Source of the DNA: Acidobacteriota bacterium
Lineage (GTDB): Bacteria; Acidobacteriota; UBA890; WLXD01
Length of the DNA stretch: 64,000 nucleotides
Reading direction: 5' to 3'
Assembly (NCBI GenBank): GCA_963666055.2
Contig: CAXWPH010000002.1
Span: 1-64,000, forward strand
Positions 832-62,551 of this stretch are shown one piece after another (within the stretch, counting starts at the first letter, position 1; every line of letters begins with the position of its first letter). Both the position numbers and the translations under genes were made by a program. The notes beneath the pieces are model-generated. The model was not told where the DNA came from. It worked only from the letters and a program-made list of their open reading frames with translations, and made no database searches.

Positions 832-923
832 CGGGGCCTCCCAGGTTAGGTGTTGCAGGGCTCAGGCTACAGCGAACGGCGGCACGATGACGAATCATGC
901 GTAGCTTCGGTAGTGGGCAAGTT

Positions 924-1796
924 TCAAGATATTGGATCCGTGCCGGTCCAAAGCTCTCCGGTTTCCTCGGCACGCTCTAGCAGGCGAACGATATCCTCGA
1001 CTTCCCACACGCGAGACGTGACGCCAGCTTCCATGGCCGGGGTCACGCGCAGCGTCCGGTGAATCCGGCAGAAGTTGTAATGCATGTAGTGGAGCGCGAC
1101 GGAGTGCGCGTGGTTTTCGACCTTCTTGGAGAATGCGTTCGTCAGCCGAGTGAAGCGGCGCATATTCATACGCATGGTCAGATTCTGACGCTCGACGTAA
1201 GACGTACTGATTAGCTCAGCGTTAGGTGAGCCGACCACGGTCAACTTCTTGGTGCCGTTGCACTTGGCAGGGCTGTAGCGCTTCTGCGGCTCCGGGTCGG
1301 GCCCGTAGATTTTCTGTAGTTGCGCGAAGTCGATCTCATGTGCGAACGCAGCCTCTACCGATTCCAGGTACATTCTGTGACCGTCGGTCGTTAGCTGAAT
1401 GCGGTTCGACAGACGCCCCGCTAGGTCCTGCATGAAGTCGGTAGCGGTGCCGAGATCACGCGGGCCAATGCGCCACGACGGAACGAGTTTGGAATCGGCG
1501 CAAATCGCGGTGAAGGTCCACACGTCGCCATACCCGAACTGACCGCGTTTGTCGGCCGGGACGTTCTTGGCCTTCGAGTAGCAGAACGCCCAGATCTCGT
1601 CGGCCTCGATCCGCTTGCACGGAAGGTCGCGCAGCACTGCATCCTGGTAGTCAGCGCACACCTGGCCGAGATCCACGAGCAGCTTGATGACGGTCGGCTT
1701 GGAAACCTTGGTCATCCGGCATGTGGCACGAATCGAATTGCCTTCAACCAGGGCGGCGACGACGTGGGCTCGCCTGGCTGTGCTTAGCTTGTTCAT
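924..1796 (-). CDS. IS1-family DDE transposase (single ORF), copy 1
   Basis: N-terminal HTH (GNSIRATCRMTKVSKPTV); catalytic motifs IEADEIW, LTTDG, SYVERQNLTMR; R-rich RRFTRLTNAFSKK. Likely start MNKLS at 1796; stop codon overlaps the left TIR. Confidence 0.9.
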   Translation of the reverse strand: MNKLSTARRAHVVAALVEGNSIRATCRMTKVSKPTVIKLLVDLGQVCADYQDAVLRDLPCKRIEADEIWAFCYSKAKNVPADKRGQFGYGDVWTFTAICADSKLVPSWRIGPRDLGTATDFMQDLAGRLSNRIQLTTDGHRMYLESVEAAFAHEIDFAQLQKIYGPDPEPQKRYSPAKCNGTKKLTVVGSPNAELISTSYVERQNLTMRMNMRRFTRLTNAFSKKVENHAHSVALHYMHYNFCRIHRTLRVTPAMEAGVTSRVWEVEDIVRLLERAEETGELWTGTDPIS

Positions 1797-1803
1797 ACTT
1801 GAC

Positions 1804-1832
1804 ATTATGCTTGACTGAGTACGAAGAAACAA
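1804..1832 (-). promoter_or_regulatory. Putative sigma70 promoter of the transposase (TTGTTT-N17-CATAAT), 7 nt upstream of ATG
   Basis: AAACAA at 1827-1832 and ATTATG at 1804-1809 on the + strand, 17-bp spacer; repeated in copies 2 and 3. Confidence 0.55.
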
Positions 1833-1928
1833 GGAGTTATTTGGTACTATCGCTAAACTTTACGTGTTAGATACCAGTAACTCGGCACTATTCTCGTTCT
1901 TTAGGTCATTTGGTGATATGTTTAGGGC

Positions 1929-3128
1929 ATGATGACGCACGAAGCCCAACGTTTGGATCTACAAGTAGGAGATGTGTTCCGGCCTGCTGCGCCGGTTGAT
2001 CGGGCCAAACTGTTCGCGGGACGAAAGAAACAGATCCGCAAGGTTGTGGACTCGATCAATCAGCGCGGGCAACACGCCGTGCTGTTTGGCGAGCGCGGCG
2101 TTGGCAAGACATCGCTAGCCAACATCCTGAGCGAAACACTCCACGTCCCCGACGGCCAACTCCTTGCACCACACATCAATTGCGACAGTGCAGACACCTT
2201 CGCCGCTCTTTGGCGCAAGATCTTCAACGAAATTGAACTTGTCGAGGAGCGAGCCGCCGCTGGCTTTCAACCGTCGCTGTTCAGCAAAACCCTATCTGTC
2301 GGAGAGCAACTACCAGAAGACCTGACCACTGGAGACGTTCTGCGTAGTTTGCGTATGCTCTCCGGGCAGGCACGGGTCGTCGTCATCATTGACGAGTTCG
2401 ACCGCATTCGTTCTGAACAAGTGCGCGCTAGCGTAGCCGATACTGTGAAGGCGCTGTCAGATCTCGCGGTTGGGGCAACCATTGTTCTCGTTGGCGTTGC
2501 AGATTCGGTTAATGAGCTTGTTCGAGAGCACGAGTCCGTGGAGCGAGCACTCGTTCAGGTACACATGCCAAGGATGTCAGTTGATGAGTTGAACGAGATC
2601 ATGGAAACTGGTTTGGGGATTCTCGGCATGTCGATTGATCCCGACGCCAAAGCCCAGATAGCCGAACTGTCTAAGGGCTTACCGCACTACACACACCTGC
2701 TCGCGAAGCATGCGGCCCGTGCAGCACTCGATGAAGACATTACAGTCATCGTGAGCGATCACGTCGCCAGTGCCATCGAGCAAGCCCTCGGTGACGCTCA
2801 ACAGACCACGCAAAAGGCGTATCACTTGGCGACAATGAGCCAACGCAGGGACAACCTCTATTCCCAGGTGTTGGTCGCTTGCGCGCTGGCACAGACTGAC
2901 GAGATGGGCTACTTCGCCCCCGCTGACGTTCGTGGACCCATGACAGAGATTATGAGCAAGACCTACGATACGCCCAACTTCGCGAAGCACCTGCATGATT
3001 TCTGTACGGAGGATCGCGGGTTCGTGCTAGAGAAGACTGGTGGGAAGCGCCGATATCGATACAGGTTCCGAAATCCCCTAATGCAGCCATACGTCGTGAT
3101 GCACGGACACCGCGACGGCTTCATTTGA
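1929..3128 (+). CDS. AAA+ ATPase cargo (Cdc6/ORC1-like or STAND-like P-loop with C-terminal helical/wHTH region), copy 1
   Basis: N-terminal FAGR motif, Walker A GERGVGKT, Walker B VVIIDEFD, TIVLVG sensor strand, SKGLPHYTH (GxP) motif. Confidence 0.85.
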   Translation: MMTHEAQRLDLQVGDVFRPAAPVDRAKLFAGRKKQIRKVVDSINQRGQHAVLFGERGVGKTSLANILSETLHVPDGQLLAPHINCDSADTFAALWRKIFNEIELVEERAAAGFQPSLFSKTLSVGEQLPEDLTTGDVLRSLRMLSGQARVVVIIDEFDRIRSEQVRASVADTVKALSDLAVGATIVLVGVADSVNELVREHESVERALVQVHMPRMSVDELNEIMETGLGILGMSIDPDAKAQIAELSKGLPHYTHLLAKHAARAALDEDITVIVSDHVASAIEQALGDAQQTTQKAYHLATMSQRRDNLYSQVLVACALAQTDEMGYFAPADVRGPMTEIMSKTYDTPNFAKHLHDFCTEDRGFVLEKTGGKRRYRYRFRNPLMQPYVVMHGHRDGFI

Positions 3129-3139
3129 TGCCTGGGTTG

Positions 3140-3400
3140 TTACTTGCCGTCGTGGGCCTTCGCGTTGCGCCACCGCGTGCGAGCGGCCTTACTGGCAATC
3201 TCTGACCGCCGCTTCTTGCTGAGCTTCTTGGCGCGTGCGACACCGCCCTTCTGCCCGCCTAGTCTGCCCAAGGCAACCGCGTGCGGATTTTTCTCGGGTT
3301 CGTCTGCTTGCTCAGATGCTTCACCCACAGCTTCCTGTACCACCTGGAAGGCTAGGAGGTTCATGTCGGTGGGTCGCTTCTTGCGTGGGCGGTCAGGCAT
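3140..3400 (-). CDS. Small basic IS-associated protein (KGG-like, often auto-annotated histone H1-like), copy 1
   Basis: KNPHAVALGRLGGQKGGVARAKKLSKKRRSEIASKAARTRW signature, Lys/Arg-rich. Confidence 0.75.
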   Translation of the reverse strand: MPDRPRKKRPTDMNLLAFQVVQEAVGEASEQADEPEKNPHAVALGRLGGQKGGVARAKKLSKKRRSEIASKAARTRWRNAKAHDGK

Positions 3401-3478
3401 AGCTAAAGCGTAGCATGCTGTCGGGATCGGTCAGATTTCAAACTTGCCCACTACCGTAGCTTCGGTAGTGGGCAAGTT

Positions 3479-4351
3479 TCAAGATATTGGATCCGTGCCG
3501 GTCCAAAGCTCTCCGGTTTCCTCGGCACGCTCTAGCAGGCGAACGATATCCTCGACTTCCCACACGCGAGACGTGACGCCAGCTTCCATGGCCGGGGTCA
3601 CGCGCAGCGTCCGGTGAATCCGGCAGAAGTTGTAATGCATGTAGTGGAGCGCGACGGAGTGCGCGTGGTTTTCGACCTTCTTGGAGAATGCGTTCGTCAG
3701 CCGAGTGAAGCGGCGCATATTCATACGCATGGTCAGATTCTGACGCTCGACGTAAGACGTACTGATTAGCTCAGCGTTAGGTGAGCCGACCACGGTCAAC
3801 TTCTTGGTGCCGTTGCACTTGGCAGGGCTGTAGCGCTTCTGCGGCTCCGGGTCGGGCCCGTAGATTTTCTGTAGTTGCGCGAAGTCGATCTCATGTGCGA
3901 ACGCAGCCTCTACCGATTCCAGGTACATTCTGTGACCGTCGGTCGTTAGCTGAATGCGGTTCGACAGACGCCCCGCTAGGTCCTGCATGAAGTCGGTAGC
4001 GGTGCCGAGATCACGCGGGCCAATGCGCCACGACGGAACGAGTTTGGAATCGGCGCAAATCGCGGTGAAGGTCCACACGTCGCCATACCCGAACTGACCG
4101 CGTTTGTCGGCCGGGACGTTCTTGGCCTTCGAGTAGCAGAACGCCCAGATCTCGTCGGCCTCGATCCGCTTGCACGGAAGGTCGCGCAGCACTGCATCCT
4201 GGTAGTCAGCGCACACCTGGCCGAGATCCACGAGCAGCTTGATGACGGTCGGCTTGGAAACCTTGGTCATCCGGCATGTGGCACGAATCGAATTGCCTTC
4301 AACCAGGGCGGCGACGACGTGGGCTCGCCTGGCTGTGCTTAGCTTGTTCAT
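3479..4351 (-). CDS. IS1-family DDE transposase, copy 2
   Basis: Translation identical to copy 1. Confidence 0.9.
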   Translation of the reverse strand: MNKLSTARRAHVVAALVEGNSIRATCRMTKVSKPTVIKLLVDLGQVCADYQDAVLRDLPCKRIEADEIWAFCYSKAKNVPADKRGQFGYGDVWTFTAICADSKLVPSWRIGPRDLGTATDFMQDLAGRLSNRIQLTTDGHRMYLESVEAAFAHEIDFAQLQKIYGPDPEPQKRYSPAKCNGTKKLTVVGSPNAELISTSYVERQNLTMRMNMRRFTRLTNAFSKKVENHAHSVALHYMHYNFCRIHRTLRVTPAMEAGVTSRVWEVEDIVRLLERAEETGELWTGTDPIS

Positions 4352-4483
4352 ACTTGACATTATGCTTGACTGAGTACGAAGAAACAAGGAGTTATTTGGT
4401 ACTATCGCTAAACTTTACGTGTTAGATACCAGTAACTCGGCACTATTCTCGTTCTTTAGGTCATTTGGTGATATGTTTAGGGC

Positions 4484-5683
4484 ATGATGACGCACGAAGC
4501 CCAACGTTTGGATCTACAAGTAGGAGATGTGTTCCGGCCTGCTGCGCCGGTTGATCGGGCCAAACTGTTCGCGGGACGAAAGAAACAGATCCGCAAGGTT
4601 GTGGACTCGATCAATCAGCGCGGGCAACACGCCGTGCTGTTTGGCGAGCGCGGCGTTGGCAAGACATCGCTAGCCAACATCCTGAGCGAAACACTCCACG
4701 TCCCCGACGGCCAACTCCTTGCACCACACATCAATTGCGACAGTGCAGACACCTTCGCCGCTCTTTGGCGCAAGATCTTCAACGAAATTGAACTTGTCGA
4801 GGAGCGAGCCGCCGCTGGCTTTCAACCGTCGCTGTTCAGCAAAACCCTATCTGTCGGAGAGCAACTACCAGAAGACCTGACCACTGGAGACGTTCTGCGT
4901 AGTTTGCGTATGCTCTCCGGGCAGGCACGGGTCGTCGTCATCATTGACGAGTTCGACCGCATTCGTTCTGAACAAGTGCGCGCTAGCGTAGCCGATACTG
5001 TGAAGGCGCTGTCAGATCGCGCGGTTGGGGCAACCATTGTTCTCGTTGGCGTTGCAGATTCGGTTAATGAGCTTGTTCGAGAGCACGAGTCCGTGGAGCG
5101 AGCACTCGTTCAGGTACACATGCCAAGGATGTCAGTTGATGAGTTGAACGAGATCATGGAAACTGGTTTGGGGATTCTCGGCATGTCGATTGATCCCGAC
5201 GCCAAAGCCCAGATAGCCGAACTGTCTAAGGGCTTACCGCACTACACACACCTGCTCGCGAAGCATGCGGCCCGTGCAGCACTCGATGAAGACATTACAG
5301 TCATCGTGAGCGATCACGTCGCCAGTGCCATCGAGCAAGCCCTCGGTGACGCTCAACAGACCACGCAAAAGGCGTATCACTTGGCGACAATGAGCCAACG
5401 CAGGGACAACCTCTATTCCCAGGTGTTGGTCGCTTGCGCGCTGGCACAGACTGACGAGATGGGCTACTTCGCCCCCGCTGACGTTCGTGGACCCATGACA
5501 GAGATTATGAGCAAGACCTACGATACGCCCAACTTCGCGAAGCACCTGCATGATTTCTGTACGGAGGATCGCGGGTTCGTGCTAGAGAAGACTGGTGGGA
5601 AGCGCCGATATCGATACAGGTTCCGAAATCCCCTAATGCAGCCATACGTCGTGATGCACGGACACCGCGACGGCTTCATTTGA
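4484..5683 (+). CDS. AAA+ ATPase cargo, copy 2
   Basis: Identical to copy 1 except L/R at ALSD(L/R)AVG. Confidence 0.85.
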   Translation: MMTHEAQRLDLQVGDVFRPAAPVDRAKLFAGRKKQIRKVVDSINQRGQHAVLFGERGVGKTSLANILSETLHVPDGQLLAPHINCDSADTFAALWRKIFNEIELVEERAAAGFQPSLFSKTLSVGEQLPEDLTTGDVLRSLRMLSGQARVVVIIDEFDRIRSEQVRASVADTVKALSDRAVGATIVLVGVADSVNELVREHESVERALVQVHMPRMSVDELNEIMETGLGILGMSIDPDAKAQIAELSKGLPHYTHLLAKHAARAALDEDITVIVSDHVASAIEQALGDAQQTTQKAYHLATMSQRRDNLYSQVLVACALAQTDEMGYFAPADVRGPMTEIMSKTYDTPNFAKHLHDFCTEDRGFVLEKTGGKRRYRYRFRNPLMQPYVVMHGHRDGFI

Positions 5684-5694
5684 TGCCTGGGTTG

Positions 5695-5955
5695 TTACTT
5701 GCCGTCGTGGGCCTTCGCGTTGCGCCACCGCGTGCGAGCGGCCTTACTGGCAATCTCTGACCGCCGCTTCTTGCTGAGCTTCTTGGCGCGTGCGACACCG
5801 CCCTTCTGCCCGCCTAGTCTGCCCAAGGCAACCGCGTGCGGATTTTTCTCGGGTTCGTCTGCTTGCTCAGATGCTTCACCCACAGCTTCCTGTACCACCT
5901 GGAAGGCTAGGAGGTTCATGTCGGTGGGTCGCTTCTTGCGTGGGCGGTCAGGCAT
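5695..5955 (-). CDS. Small basic IS-associated protein, copy 2
   Basis: Identical to copy 1. Confidence 0.75.
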   Translation of the reverse strand: MPDRPRKKRPTDMNLLAFQVVQEAVGEASEQADEPEKNPHAVALGRLGGQKGGVARAKKLSKKRRSEIASKAARTRWRNAKAHDGK

Positions 5956-6033
5956 AGCTAAAGCGTAGCATGCTGTCGGGATCGGTCAGATTTCAAACTT
6001 GCCCACTACCGTAGCTTCGGTAGTGGGCAAGTT

Positions 6034-6906
6034 TCAAGATATTGGATCCGTGCCGGTCCAAAGCTCTCCGGTTTCCTCGGCACGCTCTAGCAGGCGAACG
6101 ATATCCTCGACTTCCCACACGCGAGACGTGACGCCAGCTTCCATGGCCGGGGTCACGCGCAGCGTCCGGTGAATCCGGCAGAAGTTGTAATGCATGTAGT
6201 GGAGCGCGACGGAGTGCGCGTGGTTTTCGACCTTCTTGGAGAATGCGTTCGTCAGCCGAGTGAAGCGGCGCATATTCATACGCATGGTCAGATTCTGACG
6301 CTCGACGTAAGACGTACTGATTAGCTCAGCGTTAGGTGAGCCGACCACGGTCAACTTCTTGGTGCCGTTGCACTTGGCAGGGCTGTAGCGCTTCTGCGGC
6401 TCCGGGTCGGGCCCGTAGATTTTCTGTAGTTGCGCGAAGTCGATCTCATGTGCGAACGCAGCCTCTACCGATTCCAGGTACATTCTGTGACCGTCGGTCG
6501 TTAGCTGAATGCGGTTCGACAGACGCCCCGCTAGGTCCTGCATGAAGTCGGTAGCGGTGCCGAGATCACGCGGGCCAATGCGCCACGACGGAACGAGTTT
6601 GGAATCGGCGCAAATCGCGGTGAAGGTCCACACGTCGCCATACCCGAACTGACCGCGTTTGTCGGCCGGGACGTTCTTGGCCTTCGAGTAGCAGAACGCC
6701 CAGATCTCGTCGGCCTCGATCCGCTTGCACGGAAGGTCGCGCAGCACTGCATCCTGGTAGTCAGCGCACACCTGGCCGAGATCCACGAGCAGCTTGATGA
6801 CGGTCGGCTTGGAAACCTTGGTCATCCGGCATGTGGCACGAATCGAATTGCCTTCAACCAGGGCGGCGACGACGTGGGCTCGCCTGGCTGTGCTTAGCTT
6901 GTTCAT
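6034..6906 (-). CDS. IS1-family DDE transposase, copy 3
   Basis: Translation identical to copy 1. Confidence 0.9.
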   Translation of the reverse strand: MNKLSTARRAHVVAALVEGNSIRATCRMTKVSKPTVIKLLVDLGQVCADYQDAVLRDLPCKRIEADEIWAFCYSKAKNVPADKRGQFGYGDVWTFTAICADSKLVPSWRIGPRDLGTATDFMQDLAGRLSNRIQLTTDGHRMYLESVEAAFAHEIDFAQLQKIYGPDPEPQKRYSPAKCNGTKKLTVVGSPNAELISTSYVERQNLTMRMNMRRFTRLTNAFSKKVENHAHSVALHYMHYNFCRIHRTLRVTPAMEAGVTSRVWEVEDIVRLLERAEETGELWTGTDPIS

Positions 6907-7038
6907 ACTTGACATTATGCTTGACTGAGTACGAAGAAACAAGGAGTTATTTGGTACTATCGCTAAACTTTACGTGTTAGATACCAGTAACTCGGCACTA
7001 TTCTCGTTCTTTAGGTCATTTGGTGATATGTTTAGGGC

Positions 7039-8239
7039 ATGATGACGCACGAAGCCCAACGTTTGGATCTACAAGTAGGAGATGTGTTCCGGCCTGCTGC
7101 GCCGGTTGATCGGGCCAAACTGTTCGCGGGACGAAAGAAACAGATCCGCAAGGTTGTGGACTCGATCAATCAGCGCGGGCAACACGCCGTGCTGTTTGGC
7201 GAGCGCGGCGTTGGCAAGACATCGCTAGCCAACATCCTGAGCGAAACACTCCACGTCCCCGACGGCCAACTCCTTGCACCACACATCAATTGCGACAGTG
7301 CAGACACCTTCGCCGCTCTTTGGCGCAAGATCTTCAACGAAATTGAACTTGTCGAGGAGCGAGCCGCCGCTGGCTTTCAACCGTCGCTGTTCAGCAAAAC
7401 CCTATCTGTCGGAGAGCAACTACCAGAAGACCTGACCACTGGAGACGTTCTGCGTAGTTTGCGTATGCTCTCCGGGCAGGCACGGGTCGTCGTCATCATT
7501 GACGAGTTCGACCGCATTCGTTCTGAACAAGTGCGCGCTAGCGTAGCCGATACTGTGAAGGCGCTGTCAGATCGCGCGGTTGGGGCAACCATTGTTCTCG
7601 TTGGCGTTGCAGATTCGGTTAATGAGCTTGTTCGAGAGCACGAGTCCGTGGAGCGAGCACTCGTTCAGGTACACATGCCAAGGATGTCAGTTGATGAGTT
7701 GAACGAGATCATGGAAACTGGTTTGGGGATTCTCGGCATGTCGATTGATCCCGACGCCAAAGCCCAGATAGCCGAACTGTCTAAGGGCTTACCGCACTAC
7801 ACACACCTGCTCGCGAAGCATGCGGCCCGTGCAGCACTCGATGAAGACATTACAGTCATCGTGAGCGATCACGTCGCCAGTGCCATCGAGCAAGCCCTCG
7901 GTGACGCTCAACAGACCACGCAAAAGGCGTATCACTTGGCGACAATGAGCCAACGCAGGGACAACCTCTATTCCCAGGTGTTGGTCGCTTGCGCGCTGGC
8001 ACAGACTGACGAGATGGGCTACTTCGCCCCCGCTGACGTTCGTGGACCCATGACAGAGATTATGAGCAAGACCTACGATACGCCCCAACTTCGCGAAGCA
8101 CCTGCATGATTTCTGTACGGAGGATCGCGGGTTCGTGCTAGAGAAGACTGGTGGGAAGCGCCGATATCGATACAGGTTCCGAAATCCCCTAATGCAGCCA
8201 TACGTCGTGATGCACGGACACCGCGACGGCTTCATTTGA
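7039..8239 (+). pseudogene. AAA+ ATPase cargo, copy 3, +1 frameshift in the C-run 8083-8086 (possible sequencing error)
   Basis: CGCCCCAAC versus CGCCCAAC in copies 1 and 2; ORF truncated to 356 aa. Confidence 0.75.
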
Positions 8240-8250
8240 TGCCTGGGTTG

Positions 8251-8511
8251 TTACTTGCCGTCGTGGGCCTTCGCGTTGCGCCACCGCGTGCGAGCGGCCT
8301 TACTGGCAATCTCTGACCGCCGCTTCTTGCTGAGCTTCTTGGCGCGTGCGACACCGCCCTTCTGCCCGCCTAGTCTGCCCAAGGCAACCGCGTGCGGATT
8401 TTTCTCGGGTTCGTCTGCTTGCTCAGATGCTTCACCCACAGCTTCCTGTACCACCTGGAAGGCTAGGAGGTTCATGTCGGTGGGTCGCTTCTTGCGTGGG
8501 CGGTCAGGCAT
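8251..8511 (-). CDS. Small basic IS-associated protein, copy 3
   Basis: Identical to copy 1. Confidence 0.75.
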   Translation of the reverse strand: MPDRPRKKRPTDMNLLAFQVVQEAVGEASEQADEPEKNPHAVALGRLGGQKGGVARAKKLSKKRRSEIASKAARTRWRNAKAHDGK

Positions 8512-8695
8512 AGCTAAAGCGTAGCATGCTGTCGGGATCGGTCAGATTTCAAACTTGCCCACTACCGTAGCTTCCAGTACCACGGACGATCCCGACGGCG
8601 TCGTTGCCGCCGAGATCGACGAGCGCTTCGACCTGGCGCGGCGCATTCGCTCGCGCCTCGGATCTCGGGGATCCTCCGTGCGCCGCCGTCGATGT

Positions 8696-12133: not shown

Positions 12134-12869
12134 ATGAGCGCCGCCGCTTGGACGGCGCTCGATCGGGAGATCGTTGGCTGTCGCCTTTGCCCACGGCTCG
12201 TCGAGCACCGCGAGCGTATGGCACGCGACAAACGCGCCGCCTACCGTGATCAGGAGTACTGGGGGCGCCCGGTACCCGGATTCGGCGACCGGCGAGCGCG
12301 CCTGGTGCTCGTCGGCTTGGCGCCCGGGGCGCACGGCTCGAACCGTACCGGCAGGATGTTCACCGGCGACCGATCTGGCGACTGGCTATTCCGGGCTCTG
12401 TACGAGACCGGGTTCGCGAGCCAGCCCGAGGCCAGCCACCAGAACGACGGGCTGACACTGCACGACGCGTTCATCACCGCTGCCAACCGCTGTGCCCCGC
12501 CCGGAAACAAGCCTACGCCAGCCGAGCGCGAGCAGTGCCGCCCGTTTCTGGAGCGCGAGCTCGATCTGATCGATGCGGCACGCGGAGTCGAGGTCATCGT
12601 GGCGCTGGGCCAGTTCGCCTACGACCATTCGCTGCGGCTGCTACGTGATCGCGGCGCCCTGGTACCGCGGCCGAAGCCGAAGTTCGGGCACGCACGCACT
12701 ACCGTGGTCGGTGCCGCGAACGCTGCCGGGCGTTTCCCACGCTGCGCCGTGGAGGTGATCGCCTCGTATCATCCCAGCCAGCAAAATACCTTCACCGGGC
12801 AAGCTGACGCTCGAGATGCTGGTCGAGGTATTCGAGAGGGCGCGCGGCGCAATCGAGGCGGATCGCTAG
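12134..12869 (+). CDS. udgB: Uracil-DNA glycosylase family 5 (Fe-S), frameshift near 12800
   Basis: CRLCPRL, GLAPGAHGSNRTGRMFTGD, RCAPPGNKP, YHPSQQNTFTG; the shifted frame continues KLTLEMLVEVF to TAG 12869. Confidence 0.88.
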
Positions 12870-12899
12870 CCGGCCGATGCTTGCACCACGGCCTGCTAG
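12866..12899. repeat. Collapsed relic of the CTAG-flanked MITE family
   Basis: CTAG-CCGGCCG...CACCACGGCCTG-CTAG matches the termini of the 271-bp elements at 54770 and 62009. Confidence 0.6.
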
Positions 12900-54100: not shown

Positions 54101-54769
54101 GTGATCCGGGCTGCCGTCTTCGATCTGGATGGCCTGTTGATCGACTCCGAGCCCTTCTGGCAGCAAGCCGAGGCCGAGGGCTTTGGCGCCGCCGGCCTGA
54201 GCCTGTCGCCAAGCGATCTGCGCCAGACGGTTGGCCGGCGTATCGACGAGGTGGTGGCCTATTGGCTCGAGCGGCGCCCGTGGGACGTCGAACGCCATCC
54301 TCCAGAGAGCGTGCAGGGCAGCATCGTCGAGCGCGTCATCGACCTCATCGAAACGCGTGGCGAGCCGATGCCTGGCGTGCTGTCGGCGGTGAGCCTCTTC
54401 GAAAGCCTCGATCTGCTTCTTGCCGTGGCCTCGTCGTCCTCCAGGCGCATTATCGAGGCCGTATTGGGCCGTTTACGAATGAATGATCGGTTCGCGGTAG
54501 TGCACTCGGCGGAGCTCGAGTCACGCGGCAAGCCCGACCCTGCCGTGTTCCTCACCGCGGCTCGCAAGCTCGGCGTCTCGCCAGGGGAGTGCGTGGCGCT
54601 GGAGGACTCGATAATAGGCCTGCGCGCCGCTCGCGCTGCCGGCATGCGCTGCATCATGGTGCCCGATCCACGCCTTCGCGATGATCCGGCGCTCGGACAA
54701 GCCGACCTGGTGCTCGATACGCTGGCCCAGCTCGACGCCGAAATGCTACGCCGCGCCGTCGACGTCTAG
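54101..54769 (+). CDS. HAD-superfamily phosphatase (HxpB/YniC-like)
   Basis: FDLDGLLIDSE, AVASSS, GKPDPAVF, LEDS. Confidence 0.9.
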   Translation: MIRAAVFDLDGLLIDSEPFWQQAEAEGFGAAGLSLSPSDLRQTVGRRIDEVVAYWLERRPWDVERHPPESVQGSIVERVIDLIETRGEPMPGVLSAVSLFESLDLLLAVASSSSRRIIEAVLGRLRMNDRFAVVHSAELESRGKPDPAVFLTAARKLGVSPGECVALEDSIIGLRAARAAGMRCIMVPDPRLRDDPALGQADLVLDTLAQLDAEMLRRAVDV

Positions 54770-55040
54770 CAGGCCGTGGTGGAAGTGTGGCGGGCCTGGC
54801 GACAGGGTCTTGCGAGGAGGAGGCAAGGAGAGAGGAGGAGGCGATGGCTACCCCATCGTTGACGAGGAACGACGCAGCATAGGCGCGCAACCCCCTATCG
54901 CCCGGAGGGTTACGGCGATTTGGGGTCATCTGCGACGTTGGCCCTTCTGGACGATGGCTGGAGCATTGCCGGCGTCAGGCCGCCTTCCATCTGACCCCAA
55001 CTCGCCGCAACCAGGCCCGCTACACTTCCACCACGGCCTG
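54770..55040. mobile_element. 271-bp non-autonomous MITE/REP-like element, copy A
   Basis: 30-bp TIRs (29/30) CAGGCCGTGGTGGAAGTGTGGCGGGCCTGG; flanked by CTAG (54766-54769) and CTCTAG; similar over its full length to 62009-62279 in inverted orientation. Confidence 0.85.
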
Positions 55041-55142
55041 CTCTAGCAGATCTTCAGCACCCCGCTGCCGGGTCGCGCTGCCGTCTGCGCTCGCTTCATT
55101 GATTCAACAGTCTGGCAACGGCAGGGAGGACGTGTCGACGCT

Positions 55143-61400: not shown

Positions 61401-62008
61401 GCCAACCCTGATCGTTAGCTACGGTGGGCCGTTTGGCGAGAACTACTTTTACACTAACGAGAATCCGTACAACGATCCAAAGATCCAGCGCTTCTATCCC
61501 TATTCGGTATTGGCGTCCAAAGCGCGACGGCGAGGTACCGGGGGTGGCGGGAGCCCGGGCCCGGGCGGCTGGTTCATGGACGAGGAATACGCCTTCGAGG
61601 GCCACGCTGAGGTGCTCAGGCGCATCGTCGAGGCCGGTGGTCGTGGCGGTGTCGGCAGCCATGGCCAGTTCGACGGCCTCGGATACCACTGGGAGCTGTG
61701 GATGATCGCCTCTGGCGGTATGTCGAACCACGACGCGCTTCGGGTGGCGACGATCCACGGCGCGGAGGGTATCGGCGTTGAGAACGACCTGGGCTCGATC
61801 GAGCCGGGAAAGATCGCCGACCTGATCGTGCTCGATGCCGATCCGTTGCAGAACATTCGCAACACGAGCCGCATCCACCGGGTGATGAAGGACGGCCGCT
61901 TGTACGGACGGCGCCACCCTCGCCGAGATCTACCCGCGCCAGCGGGAGGTGCAAGGGATGTACTGGTCGGATAGCTATAGTCCCTCTTCGCCTGCGGGGA
62001 TACGCTAG
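58405..62008 (+). CDS. Secreted amidohydrolase with TolB-like (PD40) propellers; frameshift near 61907
   Basis: Signal peptide; repeated SPDG motifs; PGFVDTHAH, GVTTTRDP, GSIEPGKIADLIVLD. The shifted frame DGATLAEIYP... ends at TAG 62006-62008. Confidence 0.88.
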
Positions 62009-62279
62009 CAGGCCGTGGTGAAAGTGTGGTGGGTCTGGTTACGGCGAGTTGGGGCCGGATACAAGGCGGCCTGACACAGGCGATGCCCTAGCCATCGTCG
62101 AAGAAGGCCAACGCTGCAGATGGCCCCAAAATCGCGCAACCCTTCGGGCGACAGGGGGTTGCGCGCGTATGCTGCGTCGTTCCTCGTCAACGATGGGGTA
62201 ACCATCGCCTTCTCCTCTCTCCTTGCCTCCACTTCGCAAGACCCTGTCGCCAGACCCACCACACTTTCACCACGGCCTG
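62009..62279. mobile_element. 271-bp non-autonomous MITE/REP-like element, copy B
   Basis: Perfect 30-bp TIRs CAGGCCGTGGTGAAAGTGTGGTGGGTCTGG; CTAG on both sides (62005-62008, 62280-62283). Confidence 0.88.
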
Positions 62280-62551
62280 CTAGGAAGCCGCCAGAGTTTT
62301 CCGGTCGTTCGGCGGTGGCGACGCCTCCTCCAGCGCGACTCTTGGGTGAGCCAGGCCCAAACTCCGTAGATGATCTGGATGAGCAAGAACGGGTAGAAGG
62401 CGGCGAAGAACGCGAATTTCCCCAGCGTCCCGCAGAAGATCTTCAGGACGGGACTCACCAGAGGGTGGGTGGGCTCTTCCGGCTGGCGCACCAGCAGCCA
62501 CTCCAGCAAGCCCACAGAAATCAAGAATAGACCGATCCCGCCGACTGCCAA
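62267..62551 (-). CDS. Small hypothetical membrane protein (two TM); stop codon lies inside the MITE end
   Basis: Two hydrophobic segments and a basic tail; GGAG upstream. Confidence 0.4.
   Translation of the reverse strand: MAVGGIGLFLISVGLLEWLLVRQPEEPTHPLVSPVLKIFCGTLGKFAFFAAFYPFLLIQIIYGVWAWLTQESRWRRRRHRRTTGKLWRLPSRPW

Follow-up and report, generated by a model that had tools for sequence, protein, structure and literature searches.

Near the start of a 64,000-nucleotide stretch of DNA from an Acidobacteriota bacterium (contig CAXWPH010000002.1, positions 1 to 64,000, referred to here as the window), an IS1-like element carrying a cargo gene is present as three head-to-tail copies that share one 8-bp target duplication at every junction. 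As the best explanation, to which we give a probability of about 0.6, we propose that the element homes to a host promoter and thereby re-uses its target duplication, and that unequal exchange then varies the copy number.

The duplication, GTAGCTTC, was found four times around the three units, starting at 901, 3456, 6011 and 8567 with a period of 2555 bp. The first (901-908) and final (8567-8574) copies flank the array, and the inner two (3456-3463 and 6011-6018) each stand between two inverted repeats, at junction 1 (3440-3479) and junction 2 (5995-6034). This is the trimer with a single common duplication per junction that the original prediction, made from the sequence alone, had described. 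Its unit length of 2547 bp was right for copy 1 (909-3455) and copy 2 (3464-6010) but not for copy 3 (6019-8566), which has 2548 bp. The perfect 16-bp inverted repeat that it reported was confirmed as GGTAGTGGGCAAGTTT, which on extension matches at 18 of 19 positions. The order of end, 8 bp and end at the junctions also stood, but the end labels did not, since the transposase reads leftwards and the left end is presumably the right inverted repeat (IRR) by the usual convention; both window junctions are IRL-IRR.

As had been claimed, the copies are nearly identical, with one substitution and one additional C as the only differences among them. The substitution is T at 2464 in copy 1 and G at the equivalent positions 5019 and 7574, giving the order T,G,G along the array, and encodes Leu (T) or Arg (G) at residue 179 of the cargo ATPase. 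The additional C lies in a C run of copy 3 near 8082-8085 and is probably a consensus error, since it was absent from all contigs of the other sequencing runs compared and the assembly carries other single-base indels relative to the run contigs (at 443, 10573, 10922 and 11257). The array begins 900 bp from the start of contig C2 in a 15-contig, 5.73-Mb assembly, with a cyclase-family gene on one side and a cupin gene on the other. The unit was found nowhere else in this genome, where its sole relative is 80% identical over the transposase, so the array is not a chance pattern. The GC content of copy 1 is 56.8% against about 64% for the genome, and the insertion site is unoccupied in same-genus genomes, for example in G002 at 92% identity.

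A sigma70-type host promoter was predicted by a two-hexamer score on the minus strand at 864-893, upstream of the cyclase-family gene (ATG at 831), with -35 TCGTCA (893-888), 18 nt and -10 TAGCCT (869-864). It starts 7 nt past the duplication, which is the homing position of the family. The left flank passed narrowly, at 10.5 against a threshold of 10, and the right flank scored 5.5; the -10 stretch is kept in genomes G001 and G002. Among 56 outer flanks, TTG(A/C/T) was found 7 nt past the duplication in 15 and TAnnnT 30-31 nt past it in 17. The position was also examined in an unselected set, not chosen for junctions, of metagenome loci ranked by the similarity of their transposase (the best 80 of 575), in which 42 had both ends, 40 an 8-bp duplication and 36 were unique. 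The promoter motif was present at offset 7-8 in 22 of 72 flanks, which corresponds to 22 of 36 elements, against a background of 1.6% per flank taken from offsets 15-119. It was never found on both sides of one element, was divided 11:11 between the two ends, and placed the element end 15-16 bp upstream of the -35 box. The -35 hexamer alone was present in 13 of 69 flanks, and the -10 hexamer in 12 of 56 flanks lacking a -35 match, against a background of 2.2%. Because both hexamers were independently enriched, we infer that the transposase may be positioned on the promoter by the RNA polymerase holoenzyme.

Two other routes to the same position were considered. Targeting of a pseudo-end through the TTGA of the repeat was rejected, TTGA being found at the pseudo-end position in 0 of 69, and the small basic protein encoded by the element was disfavoured as a homing factor because L085, L090, L096 and L121, in which no small protein was detected, also lie at promoter motifs. 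Four junction-locus flanks that failed the promoter score have another motif in common at a fixed offset. Elements L101, L102, L111 and L126 have, in place of a sigma70 box, a second motif at constant spacing, ATAA-N5-GTTAT at offset 4. Insertions at offsets -1 to 2 from the -35 box were seen in L043, L073, L089, L105, L204 and L220 and may mark a second, minority docking position. L237, L241 and L244 have variant ends (GGCACTGG or GGTACTGG) and lie in short repeat-like flanks, not at promoter motifs. A literature search found no description of promoter homing or stacking by IS1, most subscription journals and the ISfinder pages being outside that search, and no precedent for IS481.

Stacking on a shared duplication was found to be widespread. 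A scan of species genomes for the pattern end-spacer-end returned at least 119 junctions from many phyla, with spacers of 8 bp in 93, 9 bp in 14, 7 bp in 8, 10 bp in 4 and 6 bp in 0. The strict pattern was present in 5 of 401 genomes of the phylum and the reversed control in 0, and 17 loci taken from this genome and related ones included seven single elements with 8-bp duplications and three with end-8-end junctions. Two loci of close relatives, L043 and L038, are mixed stacks, and in L043 one 8-mer occurs three times around two different elements. Flanks were obtained for 80 of the at least 119 junction loci, and 55 of the 160 sides could be delimited; the outer 8-mer equalled the junction 8-mer at 38 of these, its reverse complement at 3 and neither at 14. 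Six pairs were delimited on both sides, five of which join different elements, the sixth (L127) being a perfect homodimer; identical tandems are under-counted by short-read assemblies. In L081 and L119 the same 8-mer occurs four times, indicating stacks of three or more. The 9-bp spacer of L073 consists of two 8-bp duplications offset by one base, offset 9-bp spacers were also found in L054, L057 and L121, and junctions of L043 and L101 are tail to tail. One shared 8-mer at the junctions is a habit of the family, and the mixed stacks mean that homologous recombination and misassembly cannot be their maker.

IS1595 transposases were discarded as stack makers, since the loci searched gave two matches to them and no delimited partner contained either. 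The outer flanks of L050, L051 and L061 carry the junction 8-mer in reverse complement, which would fit inversion of an element or segment once inserted. Genome G148 has six junctions with 9-bp spacers, some 108 bp apart, on contigs C12, C17 and C32 (L278, L283 and L285-L287), a clustering that suggests arrays of miniature elements.

The array was next followed in other samples, where 7 of 24 listed runs (X1-X7) were compared, all as short-read contigs with at most 8 pieces per run; one of them may be the source sample of the assembly. The end-to-end junction was present in contigs of X1, X2, X4, X6 and X7, which represent five samples from two studies dated 2023-2025, and was not among the pieces listed for X3 and X5. 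It is bridged by at least 31 letters on each side in X6 and X7 only; the short side is about 22 letters in X1, X2 and X4, which is the expected pattern at a graph fork. At 2464, T was found in X1, X2, X3, X4, X5 and X7 and G in X6. Contig depth for the element versus the flanks was 16.4-21.3 versus 5.8-7.4 in X1, 9.1-15.4 versus 6.6-8.8 in X2, 7.9-8.5 versus 2-2.8 in X4 and 8.1-10.2 versus 3.7-5 in X6. The comparison of depth inside and outside the array that had been proposed as a check thus gave an excess of roughly 2-3.5 times in these four runs, although contig depth is not copy number. The trimer is present in the sequence and very likely real, and the copy number of the array probably varies.

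The search for an empty site, also proposed as a check, was successful in part. A contig of X2 joins the left flank at 899 directly to GTAGCTTC at 8567 and the right flank (short side 30 letters), but it is one base short, lacking C900, a base that G002 has. X3 and X5, from the same sample as X2, break at 899, and the right-junction contig of X5 stops at the would-be merge point. In the empty allele one cut coincides exactly with the right end and the other lies 9 bp beyond the left end. We infer that it is an excision scar made by the transposase, since slippage between direct repeats would have retained C900; a sister strain that never received the element and lost this base by chance was graded less likely. 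X1, X2, X3 and X5 (samples S1 and S2) also contain a variant copy, absent from the assembly, in which 307 bp (2859-3165) are deleted, removing the final 89 NTPase codons and the end of the small gene. In X5, additional graph paths lead into the element at 908 and at 2460 and out of it at 3016, a sign that the population may contain another flank or one more rearranged copy. Joints at 1601-1790, 1205-1561 and 1285-3193 were discounted because of their short sides and probably derive from other elements.

From these observations the following sequence of events is proposed. The element would copy out as a circle, as expected if it behaves like IS1, which is counted among the circle-forming families (bioRxiv 10.1101/2023.06.07.543989, part of the text), and paste back at the promoter-adjacent duplication, recreating the same 8-mer at each junction. 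A second copy likely landed in this way next to the first, on the same 8 bases set by the promoter. Insertion at a fixed distance upstream of a promoter-like sequence would likely cause later copies and unrelated relatives to accumulate on one spot. Once two identical copies were present, misaligned recombination and transposase action at the abutted ends may have varied their number, up to loss of the whole array, and the third copy was likely added through unequal exchange. A comparable course is described for tandems in Drosophila, where in the part of the source available to us a double insertion leaves one common duplication and unequal exchange then expands it (PMC5932611). The cargo NTPase would be a passenger and its multiplication probably a by-product; the dosage benefit that the original prediction attached to the ATPase was left unsupported by the deletion of its last 89 codons in S1 and S2.

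Several points weigh against promoter homing. The generic promoter scan made no call at 864-893, the hexamer weights and threshold were chosen after the flanks had been viewed, and 14 of the 36 unselected elements have no promoter motif at the given offset. Homing alone should give the order T,T,G or G,T,G, whereas T,G,G was observed, so a second process besides homing is needed. Formation of a dimer followed by unequal exchange fits this order, as a step from two to three copies, in agreement with the amplification of a dimer by unequal recombination that had been suggested; mis-phasing in the assembly could also be its source. Three homologs have Tyr at residue 179, where copy 1 has Leu and copies 2 and 3 have Arg, and on this comparison the G allele is probably derived. 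Homing further predicts that the newest element adjoins the promoter. In its favour, the promoter-side member was the more intact in L043, L081, L091, L212 and L223 and, by end quality only, in L089, and both junctions of the unselected set (2 of 108 ends) are on the side opposite the promoter motif. L119 has the opposite polarity, L073 is a tie, and no clear promoter was seen at L060 and L127. As a whole the polarity test is weak, with outer flanks of junction loci passing the promoter score in 14 of 28 cases (p=0.057 versus 22 of 72). All three window copies have the same orientation, though the family inserts both ways, and short-read contigs give the same picture for a chromosomal tandem and for free circles.

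The strongest alternative, which we regard as unlikely, is end-targeting, or a site-specific dimerisation of the kind known from IS30 and IS911. The transposase would join one end 8 bp from another, on a sister chromosome or from a circle, so that the array builds up whatever the promoter does and the promoter picked only the first site. The empty allele, joining 899 to 8567, looks like the left-over of such an end-to-end strand transfer and is explained directly by a transposase aiming at the end of its own element, which counts against homing. The head-to-tail window junctions, the T,G,G order and the existence of spacers of 7 and 9 bp are all compatible with it, and both dimers from partly replicated chromosomes and circles inserting beside the original copy are reported (PMC9333248, in part). 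However, IS30 yields only IRL-IRR junctions according to the same source, whereas L043 and L101 have tail-to-tail junctions; the more intact member is mostly on the promoter side (six loci, with L119 opposite and L073 tied); and for this mode PMC9333248, in the part available to us, names IS30 and IS911 only. Between the two, the evidence leans towards homing.

It is improbable that a circle which had captured one duplication returned to the parent copy through homologous recombination, under selection for more ATPase, as the original prediction had supposed in part. Such re-integration would give the same structure for identical copies in a single orientation, IS1 is among the circle-forming families (bioRxiv 10.1101/2023.06.07.543989, part of the text), and one other perfect homodimer, L127, is available. 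However, it is not needed here and cannot produce the mixed stacks, the tail-to-tail junctions or the offset 9-bp spacers of L073, L054, L057 and L121, and a truncated ATPase copy in two samples does not suit selection for the cargo. That one chromosomal copy and circular or concatemeric forms were written as three by the assembler, an artefact that had also been raised, is very improbable: the consensus has single-base indel errors, the array lies 900 bp from a contig start, and no record spans the whole of it, the contigs being compatible with circles, but the junction is found in contigs of five samples at a depth comparable to or above the flanks, both 2464 alleles occur in contigs, and relatives show the same architecture with unrelated partners, which an assembler could not build.

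The genes of the element were then assigned. A transposase of 290 aa is encoded in a single frame on the minus strand at 924-1796 (ATG at 1796), with identical copies called as open reading frames at 3479-4351 and 6034-6906. It has an N-terminal helix-turn-helix and a DDE triad in which D66 and E202 are invariant and D138 nearly invariant among 42 aligned sequences. It matched Pfam PF03400 (DDE_Tnp_IS1) at 26.7 bits, above the cut-off of 24.1, and NCBIfam IS1 (NF033558) at 53.3 bits, below the cut-off of 100; no Mutator-type family was matched in Pfam or NCBIfam, and there is no insA/insB frameshift. The structural model (pLDDT 84.9) gave DDE transposases and integrases as top Foldseek matches, with a match to ISCth4 at a TM score of about 0.4 over the catalytic core, and the plasmid proteins H1, H3 and H4, 53-60% identical to the transposase, are annotated as IS1 family transposases. 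The ends of IS1-family elements begin with GG-nnn-TG and the duplication is 8-9 bp; the ends here, GGTAGTG with an 8-bp duplication, fit this signature. Single-frame, passenger-carrying groups of the IS1 family include tIS and the ISMhu11 group. By these sequence criteria the element belongs to the IS1 family in the broad sense and not to the narrow enterobacterial IS1, and the description of it as an IS1-like cargo element was upheld.

The cargo P-loop NTPase (399 aa, plus strand, 1929-3128) has matches to AAA_22 and nSTAND1; copy 2 (4484-5683) is intact, and copy 3 (7039-8109) is frameshifted to 356 aa. Its matches in NCBIfam were weak and all below cut-off, and no curated defence protein was matched over its full length, the sole PADLOC match, to mad8, being partial and confined to the P-loop. 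The same NTPase family is carried by related elements L071, L094 and L104. A small basic protein of 86 aa, of no named family, is encoded on the minus strand at 3140-3400, 5695-5955 and 8251-8511 and is kept in many related elements. Cargo of related elements was scanned as 76 frames against Pfam (75 of 119 listed plus one hand-picked) and 57 proteins against PADLOC. Strong PADLOC matches, as a raw count, were found in four elements (IetA and IetS, HEC-06/GmrSD, SoFic and PD-Lambda-2_B), and Pfam families included SocA, a Gp49/HTH pair, NYN, HNH with MT-A70, P63C and ClpP-like proteases, with no Pfam family in 37 of the 76 frames.

Compared with known systems, the element resembles IS1 of E. 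coli in having a DDE transposase above the Pfam DDE_Tnp_IS1 cut-off and an 8-bp duplication, that of IS1 being 8 or 9 bp (PMC12903888, in part), and differs in its single frame without the insA/insB frameshift, its length of 2.5 kb with cargo, and a fixed promoter-motif position and stacking not found for IS1 in the literature searched. IS1 of E. coli is given as mainly replicative in the same partial source (PMC12903888). The Mutator-like elements TnGBS, ISLre2 and ISKra4 insert 15-17 bp upstream of the -35 box, close to the 15-16 bp from element end observed here, and their members with near-perfect ends insert both ways, like the 11:11 split here (PMC3942029, in part). They differ in transposase family, the window transposase having no Mutator-type Pfam match, and tandem stacks are not described for them in the part of that source available to us. 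IS30 and IS911 dimers likewise have abutted inverted repeats with a flank-derived spacer, can persist in populations and release single elements, but the spacer of IS30 is 2 bp whereas here it is the entire 8-bp duplication, and here junctions form in either orientation and between unrelated elements; the available part of that review names nine elements with tandem dimers, and the IS1 family is not represented among them (PMC9333248). The P-element, R1 and hobo of Drosophila share tandems with one duplication, site preference and unequal exchange (PMC5932611, in part), but are eukaryotic, whereas the window element is bacterial and cargo-bearing, with a site tied to promoter position.

Promoter targeting, tandem dimers and double insertion are each known from other families, and here they would be combined in an IS1-family cargo element. 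A wider reading is possible, though we hold it only tentatively and would not yet favour it: an IS1-family lineage spread over many phyla may dock on sigma70 RNA polymerase, insert just upstream of the -35 box and so spare the promoter, and build polar, time-ordered, integrase-free cassette arrays with cargo that includes defence genes, the abutted ends switching a locus between zero and three or more copies. Such switching is suggested by the empty, deleted and multi-copy alleles here. For the element itself, the combination, at the 15-16 bp distance also used by the unrelated TnGBS/ISLre2 transposases, would suggest that tethering to RNA polymerase arose convergently, the small 290-aa transposase would offer a test system for promoter finding by bacterial transposons, and stacking would be a possible route for small defence-type genes to gather in rows. 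The window would provide a natural locus in which abutted ends persist across samples next to an apparent excision scar.

Further observations concern sequences within and around the element. The motif TTGTTT-17-CATAAT on the minus strand at 1804-1832 stops 7 nt ahead of the transposase ATG, and a transcript from it would be nearly leaderless. The junctions of IS30 and IS911 form a strong promoter. Here an outward TTGCCC is present in both element ends with no good -10 at 16-17 nt, and a promoter across the junction is unsupported, none being called there by the generic promoter scan. The cyclase-family gene (1-831) appears split, a break that is probably a consensus error because the X1 and X2 contigs reveal a G missing after 443. 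The same genome has a second family member, L001 (contig C11 of G000, 4239-6580), in single copy with the 8-bp duplication TATCCGTC, a frameshifted transposase, P63C cargo and the same small protein; a lone similar element end lies at C14:339163. A 277-bp non-coding element with inverted ends of 32-47 nt and CTAG borders is present in the window at 54766-55042 and 62007-62283, with a partial end at 12863-12899. With 91 BLAST rows of at least 240 nt in the genome, some copies being counted on both strands, it looks like an abundant family of miniature inverted-repeat transposable elements.

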